A stretch of 64,000 bases of DNA from a virus (Duplodnaviria > Caudoviricetes). Both the position numbers and the translations under genes were made by a program. The stretch lies in IMG/VR virus record IMGVR_UViG_3300001598_000037, positions 26,811 through 90,810 of that record, one strand, 5' to 3'. Numbering within the stretch: position 1 is the first letter of the stretch; every line of letters begins with the position of its first letter. Below the pieces are notes generated by a model. The model made no database searches. It was given only the letters and a program-made list of their open reading frames with translations, and was not told the DNA's origin. Of this stretch, positions 4,293 to 38,578 are shown one piece after another.

Positions 4293-4321
4293 TTGACTTC
4301 TGTATTTTTTTCATTTATAAT
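4293..4321 (+). promoter_or_regulatory. Sigma-A promoter of the replication operon
   Basis: TTGACT-17 bp-TATAAT. Confidence 0.85.
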
Positions 4322-4389
4322 AATAATGCAGGCTAGCAATAGAACTGTATATTTATAAAAAATTTATTTTAAAAAGGAGAATTTTATTT

Positions 4390-7065: not shown

Positions 7066-8652
7066 ATGGCTGATAATACAAGTTTTGCACATTCAAATAA
7101 AATAGCTGTCATGCATGTATTAGCTGGATTAATTAAGAATCCTCTTTTATTTAGTAGTGACGAATACAAATTCGATGTTAATGACTTCCCAGAGCAATTC
7201 CATAGAATTGTTTTTGGCGCAGTTGAACATTTAGCTATTAATGGAATGGAAAAGATTGATTATATTGATATCGATCAATTCTTGAAACAATATCCAGTTC
7301 AATATAAAGTCTTTACGGGGAATGACGGCTCTGGGTATATTAGCAGAATATTAAAACTTTTTGACGAAAAGAAGTTTGATTATTATTATCAAACAGTCAA
7401 AAAACACAGTTTATTAAATAAATTAAATACACAAGGTATTTCAACTAAGGAAATCTTAGATCCTGAGGAAATTGATCCAACAAAGATCGCAGTGGCTCAA
7501 GAAAAGTTTGATGCCTTATCAGTTAATGATATATTAGATACTGTAGAAAGCAAAATGATTCTTATCAAAGAACAATTCGGCACAAATAGTGATTTAGTAG
7601 AAGATCAAGCTGGTAATGGAATTCTTGAATTAATTGAGAGATATAAAGAAGTTCCTGAAATTGGTCTACCATATGTCAGTCCCAAATTAACAACTATTTT
7701 TAGAGGTTTAAGATTAGGAACATTATATATGGAGAGCTCGGCTCAAGGTGTCGGTAAATCAAGACGTCAAGCTTCTGAATCAGCTCATCTTGCGGTTCCT
7801 GAATATTATGATCTCGAAAAAAAGCAATGGATTAAGACAGGATTTAATGAAAAAGTTTTATTAATTTCAACAGAATTAGAACTTTCTGAAACACAAACAA
7901 TGTGGTTAGCGTATGTTTCAGGTGTTCCAGAAGAACATATTATAGACGGTAAATACCTAGCAGGAGAAGAAGAAAGAGTTATCTATGCTGGTAAATTAAT
8001 TAAACAAGCAGATTTACATTTTGTTAGTATCACTAATTATAACATTGATGATATTATCAATTTAATAAAAAAATACCATCAGTTGAATGGTGTTAATTAT
8101 ATATTTTATGACTACCTTTCTACCACTATTAAAATAATGGCTGAAGGTGCTCGTAAAACTAAAATGACAGGTCTTAGAGAAGACCAAATCTTATTGACTT
8201 TCGTTACCGAATTAAAAGACTTAGCGAAAAAGCTTCAATTATGTATATTTACAGCCACACAATTATCAGGTAACTGGAAAACACAAGAAGCTGACGCACA
8301 GTTATTAAGAGGTGCAAAAGCCCTTTCAGATAAACCAGATGGATGTTCAATATTATTACCTATCAGAGAAAGTGATAAAGAAATTATTGATACATATACG
8401 TCAAAAGGATTTAATTTAATTCCTACACACGTTATCCATGTATTTAAAGTAAGAAGATCACATTATAATAATTTAAAGTTATATGTATATTTTGATAGAG
8501 CAACTTGTCGATTAGTAGATTGTTTCGCTGCCGATAGCAATGGCAATTTATTAGCAATTGAAGATACAAATATTGAATTAATTTTAGACAATACTAAAGA
8601 AACAAAGATCGAAGATGCGATCGGCGATACTTTCGATATTAATGATTTCTAG
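7066..8652 (+). CDS. dnaB: Replicative DNA helicase, DnaB-like
   Basis: Walker A SAQGVGKS, LISTELE, YIFYDYL, FTATQLS, GAKALSDKPD. Confidence 0.85.
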   Translation: MADNTSFAHSNKIAVMHVLAGLIKNPLLFSSDEYKFDVNDFPEQFHRIVFGAVEHLAINGMEKIDYIDIDQFLKQYPVQYKVFTGNDGSGYISRILKLFDEKKFDYYYQTVKKHSLLNKLNTQGISTKEILDPEEIDPTKIAVAQEKFDALSVNDILDTVESKMILIKEQFGTNSDLVEDQAGNGILELIERYKEVPEIGLPYVSPKLTTIFRGLRLGTLYMESSAQGVGKSRRQASESAHLAVPEYYDLEKKQWIKTGFNEKVLLISTELELSETQTMWLAYVSGVPEEHIIDGKYLAGEEERVIYAGKLIKQADLHFVSITNYNIDDIINLIKKYHQLNGVNYIFYDYLSTTIKIMAEGARKTKMTGLREDQILLTFVTELKDLAKKLQLCIFTATQLSGNWKTQEADAQLLRGAKALSDKPDGCSILLPIRESDKEIIDTYTSKGFNLIPTHVIHVFKVRRSHYNNLKLYVYFDRATCRLVDCFAADSNGNLLAIEDTNIELILDNTKETKIEDAIGDTFDINDF

Positions 8653-18000: not shown

Positions 18001-18935
18001 TTGATAATTTAATGCAAAAGCCAAGAAATTATATCTTAAGATCTTACTTTGTGTATTGTGCTAAACAATCAATTCAAAAGAAAGAAAAAATGACGGCGAC
18101 ACAATTAAAACAAGCCATTGAATTAGGTATGGATTTGGAAAAATATCAAAAGAATTTAAGAGTATATAAATTCCAAAAATATATTGAAAAAAATCAACAC
18201 GATGTAGCCAATAAGAGATATTTATTAAACGAGGAAGATTGTGTTAAATTCTTTAAGGTTATTATTTTACCTAATCTAAAAACTGATGATTATAATGTTC
18301 TTCCTGGCGGAGATATTGCAGTTAAATGTACAGTATTAAATAAAATTATTTCAACATTAACTGCTCCTATTATGGAATATCTATCATCTCCAGAGGGAAT
18401 TGATGCATTTTACAACGCTCAAATTGAAAATTATGTTAAAGGTATGGAAGAAAAATACTCTATTGGTAATCAATCAGCTTGGGAATTCCAAACAATGTCA
18501 TTTTATCATGGACCTCACGAATTAGAGGGTGTTAAATTATTAACTGATCCTATTTTACATTTTCATAATTTACCAGACAATTCTGATAAATGTTGTTATA
18601 TTGCAGGTACTGTCATTGGTGCTGAAAATGGGAAACATTTAGTTTATTTAAATACCACATCTGGAGTGGTCGCAGCTAAGTTTTATGCAAGTAACTACAT
18701 ATTATATAATAAGAAAATTAGTGTAGTTGATCCTGATACAAAGAAGAAAACTGTATTAGATGACTCTTGGTTTAAAAAAGGTAATAAAGTTGTTATTTAT
18801 GGTCAACGTAAAGAAAATATTTTTGCGACTAAAACCGATCGTAGTAGTGGCTATAATAGAACAGTAGGTTTAATTAAAGCCGTAGGATCAAATGGCGTTA
18901 TGGATATTGCTTGGACAAGACAAAAACAAAAATAA
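15069..18935 (+). CDS. dnaE: DNA polymerase III alpha subunit
   Basis: PHP domain (LHNHT, TDHE, TACLGGE, TDSHY), GVSRGSAG, PDVDIDID, KMDLL, YSFNRGH; 1288 aa. Confidence 0.97.
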   Translation: MYVSLHNHTTASNIKFLDCINRPKDMVKKAISLGFKGIAVTDHESLSSHVDFLKIKDSIKDCNPDFKIIFGNEIYLIDDGQYKNTNDFYHFILLAKDRVGYNQIRELSSRAWARSYVYKGIRRTPTFYTDIEEILGKDPGHIVASTACLGGELAKAILSKDADKLNKFITWCIKVFGRDSFFLEMQVSDSEEQVKCNKYIIKVSEHFGLKYIVTTDSHYLDKEDFKLFTSFLNSKSSSDRETEYFYKYTYMMSEQEMSDILATTGITYEQTAAAINNTYLIYNMIEDFDFRHGTIVPTIKIPEFQSLGVLKPYYEKYPIIKYMDESEYDQDRYMMYLIEKGLVDKHIIINDKIAARITEEIDVVKYISEQLNQRISAYLNLVKVIVDICWTISPVGVSRGSAGCFYINYLMDIVQMNPLDYDLPSFRFLNKARADALPDVDIDIDPNKNDAVVAALKEYFGHDNVINCATFKTEKLKSAVLNSARALGYNNDEAQAIAALVPQQRGIMYSLKDCLEGDEEKGLVPVPAFIDKLKSYEGLYEMVEKVEGLPTNASIHASALYIFNNGYDAQNSLMKAPNGTNITALNMHDSDDCGALKMDLLKTDAETKIGKAMDLLLRDNLIEWKGSLRDTYNYYLHPDKLDYNNVTMWELAADGKIPNLFQMETSVGQSAIKKMRPKTAEELATVNGLIRLTGGEGESPVDRYTRFKQDINLWYKEMKEYGLTDHEQELLRKHLDFTYGLCYNQEAFMLILMDPEIGGFTLKDADKGRKILAKKKVDDIAAFKEKFLTNTASTHEEFKQYVWDKMIAPQMQYSFNRGHGVGYSLIGLQEMNLATRWNPLYWACACLCVNSGNSDTNFEDSDEDYDESTSVEVVEEASDDKKEKSSAPNYIKIGKALCDAQHEGIKIGLPDINKSESDFLPDVSSNSILYSLKAITNVNDDLYERIVANRPYYKVSEFIEKVQPTTAQMVSLIKSGAFDNLMQKPRNYILRSYFVYCAKQSIQKKEKMTATQLKQAIELGMDLEKYQKNLRVYKFQKYIEKNQHDVANKRYLLNEEDCVKFFKVIILPNLKTDDYNVLPGGDIAVKCTVLNKIISTLTAPIMEYLSSPEGIDAFYNAQIENYVKGMEEKYSIGNQSAWEFQTMSFYHGPHELEGVKLLTDPILHFHNLPDNSDKCCYIAGTVIGAENGKHLVYLNTTSGVVAAKFYASNYILYNKKISVVDPDTKKKTVLDDSWFKKGNKVVIYGQRKENIFATKTDRSSGYNRTVGLIKAVGSNGVMDIAWTRQKQK

Positions 18936-19415: not shown

Positions 19416-21845
19416 ATGAAAGCAAGTGAAATTAAAAACAAAACAATCAAAGTGAAAGTAACTCCAAATAATATGACTTATCCTAGATCTGGTTTCAAAT
19501 CTGGCGATTTTGCGATTATTAAGTTTAGAGTGGATCAAGTCATCGAAGGCGAGATCCCTGACGAATGTTGTGCAAGTATTGTCTTTGGAGATTCAAACGA
19601 GAATGCTCATAGAGAATATATTATCTGCGTTAAAGGCAATTTCCCTTCAATCTCTTTCATTAGTCAGTATATATTAACAGGGGAACTTGTGATTGATAAA
19701 ACATGGGGGCCTCAATATAATCTTACTGCGATTAGATTAGACTATAATCTACAAGATGCAAATGAACAAAAGAAGTTCTTTAGTTTCTTCATGACAGAAA
19801 ATCAAGTAAATGCATTATTTGAATCGGTTGAAAATCCAATTTCTTTACTAGAAAACAAAGATATTGGTGAATTATGTAAAGTAAAGGGTATCGGTCCATC
19901 TATTGCTCAAAAGCTTTGTGAACGTTATGAAGGATGTAAAGATAATTCAACAGCTTATATAGGATTAAAAGATTTAGGTCTAACAAAAAATGCCATTGAT
20001 AAATTGGTTAAGTTTTATGGATCGCCTGATATTGTTATCTCTAAGATAGACGCAAATCCATATATCTTAGCAACTGAAGTATCTGGTTATGGTTGGTTAA
20101 AGACAGATGCGATTGCTATGAAAAAAGGTTTCGCGAAAGACTGTCGCTTCAGAGTTGAAGCATATACTAAATACTTCTTAGAACAACAAGCAGATCAAGC
20201 TGGGAATAGCTGGGTAAAGATCAACGATCTTCTATCTGCCGTTGCCACTGAATGTTATCCTGTTACAAACGAAAACTTAAATCAATGGTTAAAAGAAATT
20301 ATGATTGGTCCAAAAGACTTTGAAAAATATTATGCGAAAATGCTTGCAGGAGAAGAAGTAAAACCATTAAATGAAATGCCACTTTTATTTTACGATCCAG
20401 AGCAACAAAAGGTCGGTTTATTCTCTCTTCGTTTTATGGAAAAAGAAATTGCCAGACATTTAAAGAGAATTAAATCAGCTCCATGTGTAAGATCTTTTAG
20501 CCAATCAACAATTGAAATGTGTATTGAAGAAGCCGAAAATCAACAAGGTTTTAAATACACAGATGAACAAAAACAAACTATATTTAATATAGTAAATAAT
20601 AATGTATCTATTCTTACTGGTTCAGCGGGAACAGGTAAGACAACGACTTTAACAGCAGTAGTTAAAGTATTTAAAAGATATGGTTTACAAATCCAACAAT
20701 GTGCTTTATCAGGCAGAGCTGCTTCTAAATTAAAAGAAGTAACTAAAATTGATGGTAAAACAATACATAGAACACTATGTTATATTCCTGATAAAGAATC
20801 ATTCAAATATAATGAGAGATGCAAAATGCCTCATGATGTAATTATTCTTGATGAAACATCTATGGTAGGTGGAGATATTTTCTTATCATTAATTCAAGCT
20901 ATCAGAGATGGTGCTAAATTAATTATGGTTGGAGATATTAAACAGCTCGAAGCAATCGGGTTAGCCAATGTTCTAAAAGATTGTATGGGTTCAGCTTATA
21001 TACCTACTTCTATGTTAAGTAAGATCCATCGTCAAGCAGCAGCTTCTGGTATCATTACACAATCTATTAATATGAGTAATGGTATGCAGATGTGTAAAAA
21101 TGATTTTGTGGGAGAAGAAATTCGAGGGGAATTAAAAGACTTTAAATTAGTCGCTTCATATAAACCAGAAGCAGTATCTTATAATATCATTAGAGAGTTT
21201 AGAAGATTATATAATGAGCAACACATTCCTGCGGATCAAATTCAAGTAATTGTTCCAATGAGAGTAAGGGGAAATATTTCTTGTAATAATTTGAATTCTC
21301 AAATACAAGAGATTGTTAATCCAGGTGTGCATCCAAGACAAGTATTCCAACAATATACTGAAAATGGTACGACATATCAAGTATGTTATAAACCAGGAGA
21401 TCGTATTATTGTGGTTAAGAACAATTATCATGCTAAAACTCCAGAAGGTAAAGAAGTCGCTATCTTCAATGGAAACTTAGGCGTCATTAAAGATATATAT
21501 AATAACTCAATGATAGTCGAAGTTGATGGAGTTGATAAAGTGGTTTTATCTAAGGATGAATGGTATGATATTAACTTAGCTTATGCAATTACTTGTCATA
21601 AATTACAAGGTTCGCAAGCGCCTTATTGTATTGTTGGTTTGAATACAAGTTGTTATGCTTTGTATTCAAAAGAGTGGCTATACACAGCCGTAACAAGAGC
21701 CACAAAGTTCTGTGCACTGGTTGTACAAACAAGTTCATTGAACCAAGCAGTTCGTATTAGTCATGTTAAGACTAAACAAACGTGGTTGTGTAAAGATTTA
21801 GTAGAGTTTTATTTAGCAGAGCATGCTGGAGAGGGGTTTAATTAA
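19416..21845 (+). CDS. recD2: RecD2-like SF1B helicase
   Basis: HhH (VKGIGP), GSAGTGKTT, IILDETSM, VGDIKQL, IHRQ, YAITCHKLQGSQ, LYTAVTRA; start at 19416 follows RBS AAAGGA. Confidence 0.9.
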   Translation: MKASEIKNKTIKVKVTPNNMTYPRSGFKSGDFAIIKFRVDQVIEGEIPDECCASIVFGDSNENAHREYIICVKGNFPSISFISQYILTGELVIDKTWGPQYNLTAIRLDYNLQDANEQKKFFSFFMTENQVNALFESVENPISLLENKDIGELCKVKGIGPSIAQKLCERYEGCKDNSTAYIGLKDLGLTKNAIDKLVKFYGSPDIVISKIDANPYILATEVSGYGWLKTDAIAMKKGFAKDCRFRVEAYTKYFLEQQADQAGNSWVKINDLLSAVATECYPVTNENLNQWLKEIMIGPKDFEKYYAKMLAGEEVKPLNEMPLLFYDPEQQKVGLFSLRFMEKEIARHLKRIKSAPCVRSFSQSTIEMCIEEAENQQGFKYTDEQKQTIFNIVNNNVSILTGSAGTGKTTTLTAVVKVFKRYGLQIQQCALSGRAASKLKEVTKIDGKTIHRTLCYIPDKESFKYNERCKMPHDVIILDETSMVGGDIFLSLIQAIRDGAKLIMVGDIKQLEAIGLANVLKDCMGSAYIPTSMLSKIHRQAAASGIITQSINMSNGMQMCKNDFVGEEIRGELKDFKLVASYKPEAVSYNIIREFRRLYNEQHIPADQIQVIVPMRVRGNISCNNLNSQIQEIVNPGVHPRQVFQQYTENGTTYQVCYKPGDRIIVVKNNYHAKTPEGKEVAIFNGNLGVIKDIYNNSMIVEVDGVDKVVLSKDEWYDINLAYAITCHKLQGSQAPYCIVGLNTSCYALYSKEWLYTAVTRATKFCALVVQTSSLNQAVRISHVKTKQTWLCKDLVEFYLAEHAGEGFN

Positions 21846-23599: not shown

Positions 23600-23881
23600 A
23601 TGACATTAAATCATGTAGATGCTATTGTCACACAAGCATTAAAAAAGAGTGGCTATACTAGTGAAAGGAGAGAATCTGTTAGTACTAATTCAATTTATTA
23701 TAAAATTTACAGCTCAAGTGGTTGCGATCTTATGTTCAGAGTTGCTGATCACTCTACTAAGAGCGATGTAATTACGTTAAGAGTAGATAAAAAACTAACA
23801 GAACAATCTATTAAGAATTTTGTAAGTAATAGAGTGGCCGATCTAGGACACAGAGCCTTAAAAAAATTCTTTGGAGAATAA
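23600..23881 (+). CDS. Hypothetical protein (93 aa)
   Basis: RBS AAGGAG. Confidence 0.7.
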   Translation: MTLNHVDAIVTQALKKSGYTSERRESVSTNSIYYKIYSSSGCDLMFRVADHSTKSDVITLRVDKKLTEQSIKNFVSNRVADLGHRALKKFFGE

Positions 23882-23897
23882 AAACGGAGGGGAAAAT

Positions 23898-25085
23898 ATG
23901 AAGAAAAAATACAATCGTATCTATTTAGATGGCGCAGCTAATACTCCCTTAGATAAAAAAGTATTTAGAGCTATGAAACCTTATTTTAAAGATAATTTTG
24001 TAGGCAACTCACATGCGATCCATGAACAAGGCATCAAGGTAATGACAGCTATTGAGGACAGCAGAGCCGAGTGCGAAAAAGCATTAGGATGCGGAGATCA
24101 TCATCAGGTTTTCTTTACTTCTGGCGCAACAGAGGGTAATAACTGGGTAATTAAATCTCTAGCTTATCATGCAAGATCTGATTCTGGCAGCAAACGCAAT
24201 ACAATAGTCTGCTCGGCTGTCGAACACAGCTCTGTGCTCAATACTTGTAAACAACTTGAAACAGAAGGATTTAATGTAATATATGTTAATCCTCGTCCAT
24301 CAGGTAGAATATTTATTAAAGATATTGAAAAAGTAATTAATAATGATACAATTTTAGTATGTTTAATGGCAGTGAATAATGAAACAGGGGTAACTAATCA
24401 TATCAATCAAGTCGCTAAATATGCCCATTTATATAGAGCTTATTTACTTACAGACTGCACTCAAGCGTTAACTTATGGCGGTGCATATACTAAAATTGCA
24501 TCTATCTATTCATCTGCTGATTATTTAACTTTTTCTGGCCATAAAATCTATGGACCAACAGGTACAGGCATTTTAGTTAAACGCAATGCAGCTCCACTAT
24601 ATCCTTTAATTACAGGAGGATCTCAGGAGTTGGGTTTAAGAGGTGGAACACATAATACGGCTGGTATTGTTGGTATCGCTGCGGCTCTTAAATTAATGGC
24701 ACAAAATAGTTATTCTGATCATTTTAATCAATTATATGAATATTTTACTGAACAAATAGATGCTTTTAATAAAGAATATAAAACTAAAATTCACATTAAC
24801 GGAACATTGGGACACAAAAATATTATAAACCTTAATTGTAGTTCAATATATAGGTTTAGTTCATTAGCAAGTTTATTAGATGGGTTTGGATTATCAGTAT
24901 CAGCGGGATCTGCGTGTGATGCTAATGCTGTATCAATTCCATCTCATGTATTATTGGCGATGGGTATCCCATTGGACGATATAGGCAGTTGTATTAGAAT
25001 TTCTTTTACAAAAGACACTACCAAGAAAGATATTCAACAATTTTTCACAATTTTAAAGAAATTATTTGCATTATGGGGAAAATAA
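23898..25085 (+). CDS. iscS: Class I cysteine desulfurase (IscS/NifS)
   Basis: YLDGAANTP, FTSGATEGNN, EHSSV, VNNETG, SGHKIYGP (PLP Lys), GGSQE.GLRGGT, SAGSAC (catalytic Cys). Confidence 0.92.
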   Translation: MKKKYNRIYLDGAANTPLDKKVFRAMKPYFKDNFVGNSHAIHEQGIKVMTAIEDSRAECEKALGCGDHHQVFFTSGATEGNNWVIKSLAYHARSDSGSKRNTIVCSAVEHSSVLNTCKQLETEGFNVIYVNPRPSGRIFIKDIEKVINNDTILVCLMAVNNETGVTNHINQVAKYAHLYRAYLLTDCTQALTYGGAYTKIASIYSSADYLTFSGHKIYGPTGTGILVKRNAAPLYPLITGGSQELGLRGGTHNTAGIVGIAAALKLMAQNSYSDHFNQLYEYFTEQIDAFNKEYKTKIHINGTLGHKNIINLNCSSIYRFSSLASLLDGFGLSVSAGSACDANAVSIPSHVLLAMGIPLDDIGSCIRISFTKDTTKKDIQQFFTILKKLFALWGK

Positions 25086-27666: not shown

Positions 27667-28017
27667 ATGGTTAATCAAAAAATTAGAGAATATTTTGCAG
27701 AATTAAGTAAGGAAGTAGAAGAAGAAATCTACTTCTTAGATAACCAAGCATATGATAATAGCATTATTGGATATACTGAAGATTATCGTTTAATCTATAG
27801 TTACGAACGTATGGTAGAAGAATTATCTCAAGAATATTTAGACTCTGATCCTGAACTATCTCAAAGCGAAGATGAGTTAGTTCGTGAAGAAGCTTGCGAT
27901 AATGCATATACAGATGCAATTGAATGGATTGACTATAATACTATGGCTTTACCTTATTTAGGCGATCGAGCTCCAATTGTTATACATGAACTAAATAAAG
28001 GAGAATTTGATGAGTAA
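27667..28017 (+). CDS. Hypothetical acidic protein
   Basis: YDNSIIG...LIYSYERMVE...AIEWIDYN...PYLG motifs. Confidence 0.7.
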   Translation: MVNQKIREYFAELSKEVEEEIYFLDNQAYDNSIIGYTEDYRLIYSYERMVEELSQEYLDSDPELSQSEDELVREEACDNAYTDAIEWIDYNTMALPYLGDRAPIVIHELNKGEFDE

Positions 28018-28582
28018 GAGTTATAGAAATATGAATTTAGACGATTTCGATGAATATGGAGAATATGACGATGTCGTTACATTTGAAAAATTACGCGGAG
28101 GATCTAAAAAGAAAAAAAGTAAAGGTCATCAATCTCGACATCAAAAAAATAAATATGATGAATATGATAGTTATGACGAAATAGTGTCAGAATTGCCAAC
28201 AGTACCTGTTATTCCTCAAACTGTGGTGCAAAATCCTGTGGATACGGAGAGGGGTACGTCACCAGACGCATCGAAAACTGTCCAGACAGGTAATCATGCA
28301 TCTCATTTGACTACAGAGCGCCATGAATTGGTTAAAAAACCATTTGAATTCGGGCCAAACACTCATGAATTGATGGGAAACAAAATTGACTATGATCGAG
28401 TAGCTAATTTAGAAACTATCGAATCTGAATATAAAGGAAAACAAACTTTTGGTATTAAGTTTACTTTTAAAGGTAAAAATGCTAGTACTCGTGTAATCTG
28501 GTATAATCAACATCAAAGAGAACGTGATATGATTTTTGCTCAGGAATATAAATTCTGGTTATCTGTGAGAACTGCTAATTAG
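28010..28582 (+). CDS. Hypothetical protein with low-complexity acidic/basic N-terminus
   Basis: RBS AAGGAG; 190 aa. Confidence 0.7.
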   Translation: MSKSYRNMNLDDFDEYGEYDDVVTFEKLRGGSKKKKSKGHQSRHQKNKYDEYDSYDEIVSELPTVPVIPQTVVQNPVDTERGTSPDASKTVQTGNHASHLTTERHELVKKPFEFGPNTHELMGNKIDYDRVANLETIESEYKGKQTFGIKFTFKGKNASTRVIWYNQHQRERDMIFAQEYKFWLSVRTAN

Positions 28583-28591
28583 AGATTTTAA

Positions 28592-28620
28592 TTGACAAAG
28601 CAGTTTATATCATTTATAAT
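28592..28620 (+). promoter_or_regulatory. Sigma-A promoter driving the non-coding segment
   Basis: TTGACA-17-TATAAT, perfect consensus; no ORF of 60 aa or more for about 420 nt downstream. Confidence 0.9.
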
Positions 28621-28624
28621 AATT

Positions 28625-28995
28625 ATAGGGTAGCAATCCCTTGCTGAGTGATCAGCCTATGTGCGCAGTAGAAAAACCACTTAGGCACGGAGTGAAGATA
28701 TCGTGCACCTGATTTGTTTATTACAGGAGATGCTAGCATTACTCCTGTATGTGAGGGCACAGGTTATGCTTGTGTTCTCTTCTCTGTCCACAATGTCGGA
28801 TAAACTCCACTATATGGAATGTTAGTAGGTTCGACTCCTACTGTGGGCACAATCTTCTGAATAAACCGCTTAGCAAGTGGAACTAGAAGAAAAAGGAGTG
28901 AGACCCCTCCGATAAGCGTGGTCGAAAAATAGGAGCGACAAGGTTGCTGGATAGCAGTAGACGAAAGTCGAGAATCCTGTCGCTCTTACGCATTT
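28625..28995 (+). ncRNA. Large structured non-coding RNA, family unknown
   Basis: At least 8 stems, three GNRA-type loops (GCAA, GTGA, GAAA), GC-richer than flanks, starts at the predicted TSS. Confidence 0.7.
28786..28852 (+). ncRNA. tRNA-like domain with reduced D and anticodon arms
   Basis: 7-bp acceptor GTCCACA/TGTGGGC, T-arm GTAGG-TTCGACT-CCTAC, GG in a short D-like loop; only 32 nt between acceptor 5' strand and T-arm; ends ACAA. Confidence 0.7.
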
Positions 28996-29045
28996 TATAT
29001 ACCTTAAATAAAATGGTGATTTTATTTAAAGAATTTGGGGGTTAA

Positions 29046-29237
29046 ATGATTAATATGAATTACTATATTCAATGTGCACGACAAAGTGGCAAAACTTATA
29101 TGATTCTTAAAATCCATGAAATTCAATTGGAGCTTATGAAAGATCTTGATCACAAGCCAACCATAGACGAATATATTTATTATTATAATTTAGCTATCGA
29201 AAAATATTTTAATCCAGAAAATAAAAATAAGAGGTGA
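29046..29237 (+). CDS. Small protein with a P-loop-like fragment
   Basis: CARQSGKT in 63 aa. Confidence 0.55.
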   Translation: MINMNYYIQCARQSGKTYMILKIHEIQLELMKDLDHKPTIDEYIYYYNLAIEKYFNPENKNKR

Positions 29238-36288: not shown

Positions 36289-36321
36289 TATATCAAACAA
36301 CAGCAAACAACAACAAACATT

Positions 36322-36351
36322 AAGAAGGATCTTAAAAGTCCTTCTTTTTTT
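36322..36351 (+). terminator. Intrinsic terminator ending the + arm
   Basis: AAGAAGGA-N9-TCCTTCTT plus TTTTT. Confidence 0.8.
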
Positions 36352-37500
36352 ATCGCCTCCCCCCTCCGCCTCCAAAAAGAACTCTCTTCTTTTCTTTCTT
36401 TATATATTTCTTTCTTATTCTTCTCTGAATTACATATTATATATTATAGTCTGCCATATAATATAAAATAATACAGTTAGCTGTTTTAGCTTGCTGCTAA
36501 GCAAGGTACAACGCCGACCACCGATCGTCCTAAAAAACACCTCAACTCTACTCGGCGGTCGTCGGCTGTCGCCTCCTGGCTATACGCTCGCCCACCAGAC
36601 TGCCGTTCCAGTTCCTTATCCAGTTCCAATTTAATTGTAATACAACGCTTCGCTCATTTTGGCAGTTCGCTTCGCAAACCGCCGTTCAAGTATATGACTC
36701 GCCTCTCGGCTCGTAATATAGTGTTAGATTATTTTTGCTTTATAAATTTGGTATCATATTTTTTGATCTTATAAATTTGATACCATATCGGACAACCGAT
36801 ATAACTGGCAACCGTTATACTATACGGCGCTGGGCTGGGCTGGGCACAGTCGAGTCCAGGATAGCGAGCTGGGTTGCTTTGTAACATTACATCATGATTT
36901 TTGTAACACGCGTTACGCTACATGCTCGTACCTGCGCTGACACCTTATTTTATTACTTATTATTTATGCGCGGGCACACATATACGGCACGGCCCTGTTT
37001 TGGGCCCTAGGAAGCCCGTAGAGCCGTTTTAAGGGCCGAGCCGATAAATTATACCTATTTATATATTACGAGCGTTTTAGGGTCATTTAAATGCGAATTT
37101 GAAGGGGGTGTAATTTAGACGAAAGGCGAAGCCGCAGGCGAAGACGATAGTCGGCTCGCGCGCGTGCGCGGGCGCGTGTATTGAGAAGCTATTTGGGGAG
37201 TGCCTTTTTAAACAGCCGCCCCTCCCCACAGGCAGAGAGCCGCTTCGCATCGCTTCGCATCGCTTCGCATCGCTTCGCTTTATCTTCGCTCCGTTTTATT
37301 AATTTTTTACCCCTACCCTCAGCCCACAGCTTCGCCTTCCACATTTGCCCCCAAATGCCGAGTAGACACCCCCGAGCCGAGTCCCGTTTTAATCTGCCCT
37401 GCTCTGCTCTGCCCGCATCCAGATCGCCAAACTATATCATTACAATGATACACCTGATCATATACACAGTCCCGAGAATGTCCGTACGCGTACATGTCTT
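36352..37500. other. Non-coding GC-rich convergence zone (candidate origin, terminus or packaging region)
   Basis: Bounded by opposing terminators; many short repeats and palindromes; 8 GCGAAGC copies. Confidence 0.5.
37241..37280. repeat. 10-bp tandem repeat (CGCTTCGCAT)x3 + CGCTTCGCTT
   Basis: Read directly from sequence. Confidence 0.95.
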
Positions 37501-37840: not shown

Positions 37841-37878
37841 GAGTTTCTCCTCCTTTAATTGTCATTAGTTGGAATTTA

Positions 37879-37907
37879 TTGAACATTGATTTGAATTTAT
37901 ATATAAA
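37879..37907 (+). promoter_or_regulatory. Possible antisense promoter
   Basis: TTGAAC-17-TATAAA. Confidence 0.45.
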
Positions 37908-37962
37908 CGGCAAAGAAGAGAGCCGAGCCTGGTTTTATATGTATGTTTGGAGGAACAATTAT

Positions 37963-38046
37963 ATGAAAACAAAGCTACGTGATGAGAAAGGACTTTCGAC
38001 CTTGAGAGATCTCTGGGATCTGACACGATCTGGTTATAAGAGGTAA
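37963..38046 (+). CDS. 27-aa peptide antisense to the leader of the 72-aa gene
   Basis: GGAGGAACAATTATATG initiation cassette; MKTKLRDEKGLSTLRDLWDLTRSGYKR. Confidence 0.5.
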   Translation: MKTKLRDEKGLSTLRDLWDLTRSGYKR

Positions 38047-38109
38047 AAATGAATTGTTTGCACAGCGAAGTGCAACGTATCGGCGCGGCCCTCTCCTCTA
38101 CCTATTATA

Positions 38110-38138
38110 ATTATATCATAGACCTATATAAATGACAA
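38110..38138 (-). promoter_or_regulatory. Minus-strand promoter
   Basis: TTGTCA-17-TATAAT with TG. Confidence 0.8.
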
Positions 38139-38578
38139 GAGAATTCTCTATAAAAAAATGGGCCCCAGAGCCCAGGGCCGACCTACATAAATTTGATCGA
38201 CAAATTTTTAAAAAAGTGGCCGACCTATATACTTTTAAAAACGGCCCCCAAATTTTTAATAAAAATAACCGAGTGTGCTCGGCCTAAAAAATCCGCCCTG
38301 GGGGCGGCTAAAAAAATGGGGTGTCGAAAAAGAAAACTCCCCCCTGAGGCAAGGAAACTCGGGGCCGAGGCAACAAGCGGCCCAGGACGGCCGAGTTTAT
38401 TAAGGGGTGATCCTCCCTGTTTTTTAAAAGGGCCGCGCAGCGCCGCCGCGATCATGCCCCCTCCTCTAAATTCAACACTTGGCTGAGGCAATAGGTGCTG
38501 TTAAATCTAGAGGAGGAAACATGATCTATTAGGATGTAGTCAAGAAGTATCGATAAATTGTTGAACAGTACCAGACAT

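Follow-up and report, generated by a model that had tools for sequence, protein, structure and literature searches.

RNAs of the ROOL and GOLLD families have been linked to the tRNA islands of phages (bioRxiv 10.1101/2024.12.08.627333), and the tRNA region of phage T4 yields two small non-coding RNAs, RNA C and RNA D, whose role is unknown (PMC3014915). Mimicry of a tRNA is known from a tRNA-like Y RNA whose acceptor stem has 7 bp: RNase P cuts it in vitro, and in vivo it undergoes cleavage and CCA addition (PMC4201824). The locus described here lies at positions 28625 to 28995 on the + strand of a 64,000-nucleotide stretch of DNA, hereafter the window (G000:C1:26811-90810), of a 90.8-kb IMG/VR virus record with a CheckV completeness of 66%. 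It resembles ROOL and GOLLD in being phage-borne, promoter-driven, structured and tied to tRNA islands. However, ROOL is ~580 nt long and pseudoknotted, whereas the locus spans ~370 nt, consists mostly of local hairpins and has no conserved family behind it. The nearest described analogue is T4 RNA C and D. The locus likewise occupies a tRNA-island slot under its own promoter, but it has no sequence relation to the T4 RNAs, it belongs to a record without a canonical tRNA, and its processing is predicted. With the Y RNA YrlA it has in common a tRNA mimic (T-arm, D-loop features and acceptor stem) within a non-coding RNA; it differs in that its tRNA-like element ends at the acceptor stem, and no Y RNA family was among the Rfam matches. 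The Y RNA/Ro60 idea was discarded, PF05731 and PF11443 (Ro60/TROVE, DUF2828) being absent from the 66%-complete record. As an orphan, the locus represents a variant of a phage locus type already known, and looks like a remodelled tRNA island, not a new giant RNA. In the reading preferred here, to which a probability of about 0.5 is assigned, it is a non-coding unit of the tRNA-island type that would be cut by RNase P and RNase Z at a tRNA-like handle.

The window has a G+C content of ~0.32 and a + strand gene block that extends to ~36 kb. Its genes include a DnaE-type polymerase, a DnaB-like helicase, a primase, a Sak4-like annealing protein, an exonuclease V/Dda-like helicase, a NifS/IscS-like cysteine desulfurase and a dUTPase, and its source is a large, low-G+C, uncultured phage. 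The sigma-70 consensus promoter of the locus, TTGACA-17-TATAAT, matches at 12/12 positions (28592-28620, + strand), and the start site of the RNA is predicted near A28627/G28628. Three perfect copies occur in the window, this one included. When one mismatch is allowed, 14 sites are found there against 1.6 expected, and most of them lie directly 5' of genes on the coding strand. Host-type promoters are evidently in use by the phage, judging from these sites, and the promoter of the locus is credible for this reason. Elsewhere the promoter is ~30-90 nt from the start codon, whereas at the locus this distance is 426 nt (next ATG at 29046). The intervening gap (28583-29045) has a G+C content of 0.40 against ~0.32 and contains no ORF of 60 aa or more. 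The largest ORFs within it reach at most 45 aa, none is protein-like, and no ORF on the coding (+) strand starts with ATG, leaving ~420 nt after the promoter without a credible ORF. The perfect promoter and the ORF-free run that follows it, both claimed in an earlier note made from the sequence, are thereby upheld.

Two further features of the window may be recorded here. The promoter regions at 4293-4340 and 28592-28637 are ~83% identical up to and including the -10 box and the initial bases of the transcript, with the common sequence ..TATAATAAT.A...G.TAGCAAT.. between them. Two other stretches, 36289-37180 and 37841-38192, are ORF-poor and of raised G+C (0.43 and 0.38, respectively); they lie at the switch between the + and - strand gene blocks, and no Rfam family matched either at its gathering score.

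At the centre of the preferred reading is a 64-nt cloverleaf (28786-28849, + strand), non-decoding and similar in sequence to the tRNA-Thr(GGU) of related phages. All seven pairs of its acceptor stem are formed (GUCCACA/UGUGGGC, with one U.G pair), and its T-arm is canonical (GUAGG-UUCGACU-CCUAC), with a T-stem of 5/5 pairs and a loop that fits UUCRANY. The discriminator is A, followed by CAA in place of CCA. The D region measures 9 nt and retains GG, and does not form a D-arm with a stem of 3-4 bp. When aligned with the tRNAs of relatives, the anticodon arm is of normal length, having 4/5 stem pairs and the loop ACUAUAU. The nucleotide U33, near-universal in tRNAs, is replaced by C33, and the anticodon is not GGU. 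Residues A32 and U38 of the loop can pair, leaving the 5-nt loop described in the first reading of the sequence. The real deficit of the element is the reduction of its D-arm. The intact acceptor stem and T-arm, set beside the changed anticodon loop and the change of CCA to CAA, argue that the enzyme-recognition half of a tRNA has been kept and the decoding half has not.

The best match to the element, by sequence and by covariance model, was the tRNA-Thr(GGU) of three related phage loci (L012 16541-16617, L004 12635-12710 and L028 3498-3573). Global alignment to the relatives' tRNA-Thr(GGU) gave z scores of 6.4-7.1, compared with 3.5 at most for 24 other tRNA and tRNA-like genes. A covariance model built from the element alone (R3) found one match with E<=1 in ten whole related records, namely the tRNA-Thr(GGU) of the L012 record (E 0.002), and its three best non-self matches in the fetched loci were the tRNA-Thr(GGU) genes of L028, L012 and L004. 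The likeness of element and tRNA-Thr is significant both by its rank and with covariance models, for which E was 0.002-0.04; with nhmmer E was only ~0.5. The T-arm, the 3' strand of the anticodon stem and the discriminator are common to both, whereas the element has a D-arm ~8 nt shorter, C33, and CAA instead of CCA, and is missed by tRNA finders. Compared base by base with the tRNA-Thr of L012, the T-arm is identical at 15/17 positions. Acceptor pairs 4-69, 6-67 and 7-66 have changed on both sides with pairing kept or gained, pair 2-71 has become a wobble, and no pair is broken; these compensatory changes may predate the loss of a working tRNA. The anticodon loop differs from that of tRNA-Thr(GGU) at 4/7 positions. 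The tRNA-like domain proposed in the earlier note is upheld, and its best likeness is to tRNA-Thr(GGU). Other segments of the locus were considered as tRNA relics and rejected, no local alignment to 26 tRNAs of relatives exceeding z 4. The outer stem of a hairpin 3' of the element, H7, resembles the acceptor stem of one relative's tRNA-Val, a resemblance that is not significant.

ARAGORN called no tRNA or tmRNA at default settings, at 80% thresholds or in mitochondrial mode, and at 70% thresholds with introns allowed its calls were implausible. The best tRNA-clan match to the element was tRNA-Sec at 14.3 bits (E 7.6); the Rfam tRNA family RF00005 needs at least 29 bits. No canonical tRNA was found in the window or in the rest of the record. 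A tmRNA, whether one-piece or permuted, was rejected on account of C3-G70 in place of G3.U70 in the acceptor stem and of the lack of a default Rfam or ARAGORN call. The failed tRNA tests and the record without a canonical tRNA are consistent with the locus being a decaying remnant of a former tRNA island, in which the element would be a pseudogene, and the hairpins would form a long but ordinary 5' leader of the downstream operon and serve no function as RNA themselves. Consistent with this too are the syntenic relative L014, in which the slot holds a small membrane ORF only and no RNA, the lack of a flank homologue in the searched collections and in ten related records, and two unstructured stretches within the locus (28655-28720 and 28893-28930). 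However, a flawless acceptor stem (7/7), T-stem (5/5) and T-loop contrast with the heavily changed D-arm and anticodon loop, which is a selective pattern and not one of uniform decay. The perfect promoter, the raised G+C and four very stable hairpins also speak against decay, and a remnant is possible but on balance unlikely.

Two further explanations concern the element alone. It might be a working, aberrant tRNA with a reduced D-arm, the loop ACUAUAU and the anticodon UAU, as the canonical length of the anticodon arm in one reading would allow; C33 for U33, the 9-nt D region and a tRNA-clan score of no more than 14.3 bits oppose this. Phages often integrate into tRNA genes, and the element might accordingly be an attP copy of the 3' end of a host tRNA. 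The 21-nt sequence of its T-arm and acceptor 3' end was, however, found in the genome contigs of none of 185,579 species representatives, the record encodes no tyrosine integrase, and the 5' acceptor strand is present too. Together these explanations are extremely improbable.

The position of the locus returns us to the preferred reading of a tRNA-island-type unit. The gene immediately upstream, u1 (191 aa; 28007-28582, + strand), has orthologues in all related phage loci as judged by tblastn and alignment, and was used as the synteny anchor. A tRNA-Ser(GCU) lies 70-130 nt 3' of the u1 orthologue in L012/L004, L011 and L027, and tRNA arrays lie 0.8-1.9 kb beyond it in L021, L006/L019 and L026. 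The islands of relatives have consensus promoters at L026 4598, L019 3085 (= L006 ~17190) and L003 ~19577. In L026 the island consists of TTGACA-17-TATAAT, a 5' hairpin from ~+7, a tRNA-Leu, a ribosome-binding site and a gene, with no terminator. In L006/L019 the promoter is followed by a structured leader of ~100 nt, a non-canonical tRNA-like gene, an 81-nt tmRNA-like domain, ~150 nt and a gene, and in L003 by ~230 nt, a 91-nt tRNA-like gene with a 4-nt "anticodon" loop, a tRNA-Gly and a tRNA with a TCA anticodon. The locus has the order promoter, 5' hairpin, structured leader, tRNA-like element, structured trailer and a gene without a convincing terminator, and its design is the same as that of these islands. 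It is placed downstream of u1, as in L012, L004, L011 and L027, and has a promoter of its own, as in L026, L019 and L003; of functional tRNA genes, at least one of which belongs to a tRNA island, it has none.

The significance of the fold was expressed as z against dinucleotide shuffles, for the whole region and module by module. The whole region gave z -3.4 on the + strand (-119.1 kcal/mol) and z -3.1 on the - strand (-106.6 kcal/mol). The G.U pairs of hairpin H5 and of the acceptor stem and the orientation of the T-loop favour an RNA from the + strand, in line with the earlier note. At the 5' terminus (28627-28656, all modules being on the + strand) are H1 (AGGG..CCCU, with a GCAA-containing loop) and H2 (GCUGA-GUGA-UCAGC, pairing probability 0.89), with a z of only -1.7. 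A weakly structured spacer follows (28657-28721; z 0.06 for 28655-28720, which includes GCACG/CGTGC), and after it come H4 (UACAGGAG / CUCCUGUA; 28722-28749, z -2.9, pairing probability 0.92) and H5 (28753-28785), a hairpin of 12 bp including 3-4 G.U pairs, followed by UUCUCU (z -4.7 for 28753-28779, p 0.99). Beyond the element lie H7 (28853-28890; UCUUCUG.../...UAGAAGA with inner CCGCUU/AAGUGG, z -3.1, p 0.86-0.90) and a second weakly structured spacer containing AAGGAG and CCUCC (GGAG/CTCC; 28893-28930, z -0.08). The last module, H9 (28932-28986, z -4.1), is a three-way junction with a long closing stem (p 0.99) and the arms UGCUG..CAGCA and GAC-GAAA-GUC, and its tail UUACGCAUUUUAU is a poor U-tract. 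Only H4, H5, H7 and H9 folded better than shuffled sequences, and the stretches 28655-28720 and 28893-28930 did not. The stems listed in the earlier note are thus all present in the sequence, but not all of them exceed chance.

An A/U-only hairpin, a GGGGG ribosome-binding site and the ATG of the next gene (29046) occupy 29005-29048 on the + strand. Read-through from the locus into this gene is likely, because no strong terminator was found between H9 and the gene. Relatives seemed to contain the A/T-rich palindrome of 29005-29031 as well, but it is no repeated motif in this genome and was set aside.

A single long-range helix (28628-28639/28895-28906) was modelled with a probability of ~0.5-0.65; it is short and interrupted, and it competes with H1 and with H8 (GGAG/CUCC). 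The modelled structure is best described as beads on a string, made up mostly of local hairpins. This helix is central to an explanation in which the locus encodes one large, ornate RNA of ~280-370 nt that acts as a unit, is closed by the helix and encloses the tRNA-like element as a domain. The z of -3.4 for the whole region, the intermediate probability of the helix, the presence of GNRA loops and the fact that the phage already has one large RNA, ROOL, are in its favour. However, the helix has the weaknesses just given, the remaining structure is local, neither homologues nor covariation were found, and the locus matches neither ROOL, GOLLD nor any other large-RNA family, so that a single large RNA is doubtful. 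The earlier note had put forward one ornate RNA comparable in kind to ROOL and GOLLD. That claim is not supported, in view of the local hairpins, the ambiguous long-range helix and the lack of a homologue and hence of covariation. Its other suggestion, a polycistronic precursor of small RNAs, fits better than a single RNA considering the tRNA-island slot and the likeness to tRNA-Thr, with a processing that is predicted.

No family of Rfam 15 (4227 families) matched at its gathering score anywhere in the window, so that the Rfam check proposed in the earlier note gave no strong match, and between 28500 and 29100 only weak matches at chance level were obtained at E<=10. For ROOL (RF03087, threshold 99.1 bits) the locus gave no match either at the gathering score or at E<=10. 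Even at E<=10 there was no Rfam match to GOLLD, OLE, raiA, RNase P, tmRNA, SRP, 6S or group I/II introns, in agreement with the earlier note, which had recognised neither ROOL nor GOLLD and had reported the hallmarks of tmRNA, RNase P, SRP and introns as absent. A true ROOL of the same phage served as a positive control and was found at full length with 263.4 bits (G000:C1:5174-5753, L015:5174-5753). It lies 50 kb upstream of the locus, 21.6 kb before the window, and has the promoter TTGACG-17-TATAAT at C1:5091. ROOL also occurs in two complete phages related to this one (in the regions L028:1189-3573 and L029:1395-2024), in one case between tRNA-Thr(GGU) and tRNA-Val(CAC) and in the other directly after a tRNA with a TCA anticodon, which agrees with the published link of ROOL and GOLLD to tRNA islands.

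Homologues of the locus were sought in several collections. Searches with blastn and megablast against 50,697 phage records gave no match, and scans of viral contigs with exact and degenerate patterns of the tRNA-like element and the H9 core gave 0 matches, as did a scan of metagenome contigs with a 22-base loop pattern. Against all fetched loci, nhmmer and blastn returned only a weak match to tRNA-Thr. With single-sequence covariance models of the trailer (R1) and the leader (R2), 0.3 Mb of loci gave no match besides the query itself, and ten whole related records gave none at all. The u1 protein has only three distant homologues among 5.8 billion proteins, and no similar RNA was found on their contigs. 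Because u1 has no close relative among these proteins, close kin of the phage are apparently not in the searched collections.

The only terminator-like site flagged on the + strand is H5, which is also the most stable hairpin. It may be a weak terminator or a hairpin that protects a 3' end, and it could terminate most transcripts before the tRNA-like element. In the extreme case, the product would be a short small RNA of ~155 nt, running from 28627 to H5 and UUCUCU with its own terminator, and the elements beyond would be unrelated and reached only by read-through. The stability and singularity of H5 agree with this, but its U-tract (UUCUCUG) is poor, an antisense search of the phage genome gave no target, only chance matches of 12 nt, and an intact tRNA top half directly after H5, together with H7 and H9, would be left unexplained. 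A short small RNA alone is thus very unlikely.

In the preferred reading, a host-type sigma-70 promoter would start an RNA at ~28627 made up of a leader of ~160 nt (H1, H2, H4 and H5), the 64-nt element and a trailer of ~145 nt (H7 and H9), and the transcript would probably continue into the downstream genes or operon. The element resembles, and may derive from, the tRNA-Thr(GGU) of the lineage, a likeness that is the sole recognisable sign of ancestry in the locus. It retains the top half of a tRNA, in which the 7-bp acceptor stem is stacked on the T-arm (a 12-bp stack) with GG for the elbow, and has lost what decoding needs, namely the D-arm, U33, the GGU anticodon and an encoded CCA. The acceptor/T-arm top half is what RNase P, RNase Z and the CCA-adding enzyme recognise, and a 7-bp acceptor stem is a major determinant for RNase P. 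Cleavage would be likely at 28785/28786 and after A28849. Three products are predicted: a 5' RNA of ~159 nt ending in H5 and UUCUCU, a mini tRNA-like RNA of 64 nt, and, starting just before H7, a 3' RNA or mRNA leader capped by a hairpin.

A more far-reaching interpretation is offered tentatively and is regarded as unlikely: selection would have kept the tRNA top half as a functional, non-decoding mimic, which with its flanking hairpin RNAs would belong to an undescribed class of phage tRNA-derived RNAs. Such a class would replace or accompany real tRNAs in islands, often in phages that carry ROOL. The mimic could possibly serve as a handle for processing, by which neighbouring RNAs acquire their ends and their stability, or could act as a decoy against host enzymes or defence toxins directed at the tRNA acceptor end. 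If the element is processed and stable, it would be a case of a phage keeping only the enzyme-recognition half of a tRNA, and would bear on why odd tRNA-like genes, and large RNAs of which ROOL is one, are so frequent in phage tRNA islands. With one promoter and one tRNA-like handle, the locus offers a simple test system. Its wider weight is limited, because it is an orphan with no homologue found in the searched collections.

The tRNA islands of the relatives have unusual features of their own. An 81-nt segment at L006:17476-17556 (= L019:3375-3455) matches the tmRNA model end to end with 58.4 bits. It consists only of the tRNA-like domain, with G3.U70 and an encoded CCA, and without a tag reading frame or pseudoknots, and on these features it reads as an alanine acceptor of the tmRNA type in minimal form, set in a phage tRNA island. 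The arrays also contain non-canonical tRNA-like genes, 90-124 nt long, at L012:16621-16739 (= L004:12714-12832), L003:19846-19936, L006:17312-17401 and L006:19905-20028; they have perfect acceptor and T-arms and odd or inserted anticodon regions. None of them is called by ARAGORN, and the Rfam tRNA model finds only L006:17312-17401 (43.4 bits). A ~30-nt motif, GTTAAATGGAGTTnGAnGAACAGCCTGTT, recurs closely 5' of tRNA and tRNA-like genes in L006 (~18677-18710, 19745-19780 and 20200-20232), and could be a promoter or a processing signal.

Several relatives carry tRNAs with CTA or TCA anticodons (L003:20045-20144, L006:18772-18845, L021:4092-4166 and L029:1395-1489). These would read TAG or TGA, which suggests stop-codon reassignment in those phages; the ORFs of the window itself are open under code 11. 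In the distant relative L013, one gene downstream of its u1 homologue, a gene-free stretch of 1 kb (7466-8481) is G+C-rich and of low complexity, with GT/GC-rich repeats, and is unlike the locus. Finally, the NifS/IscS-like cysteine desulfurase (PF00266, 209 bits) is encoded at 23871-25085 of the window and is 40-54% identical across the phage group. The location of its gene a few kb upstream of tRNA islands hints at phage-directed thiolation of tRNA.
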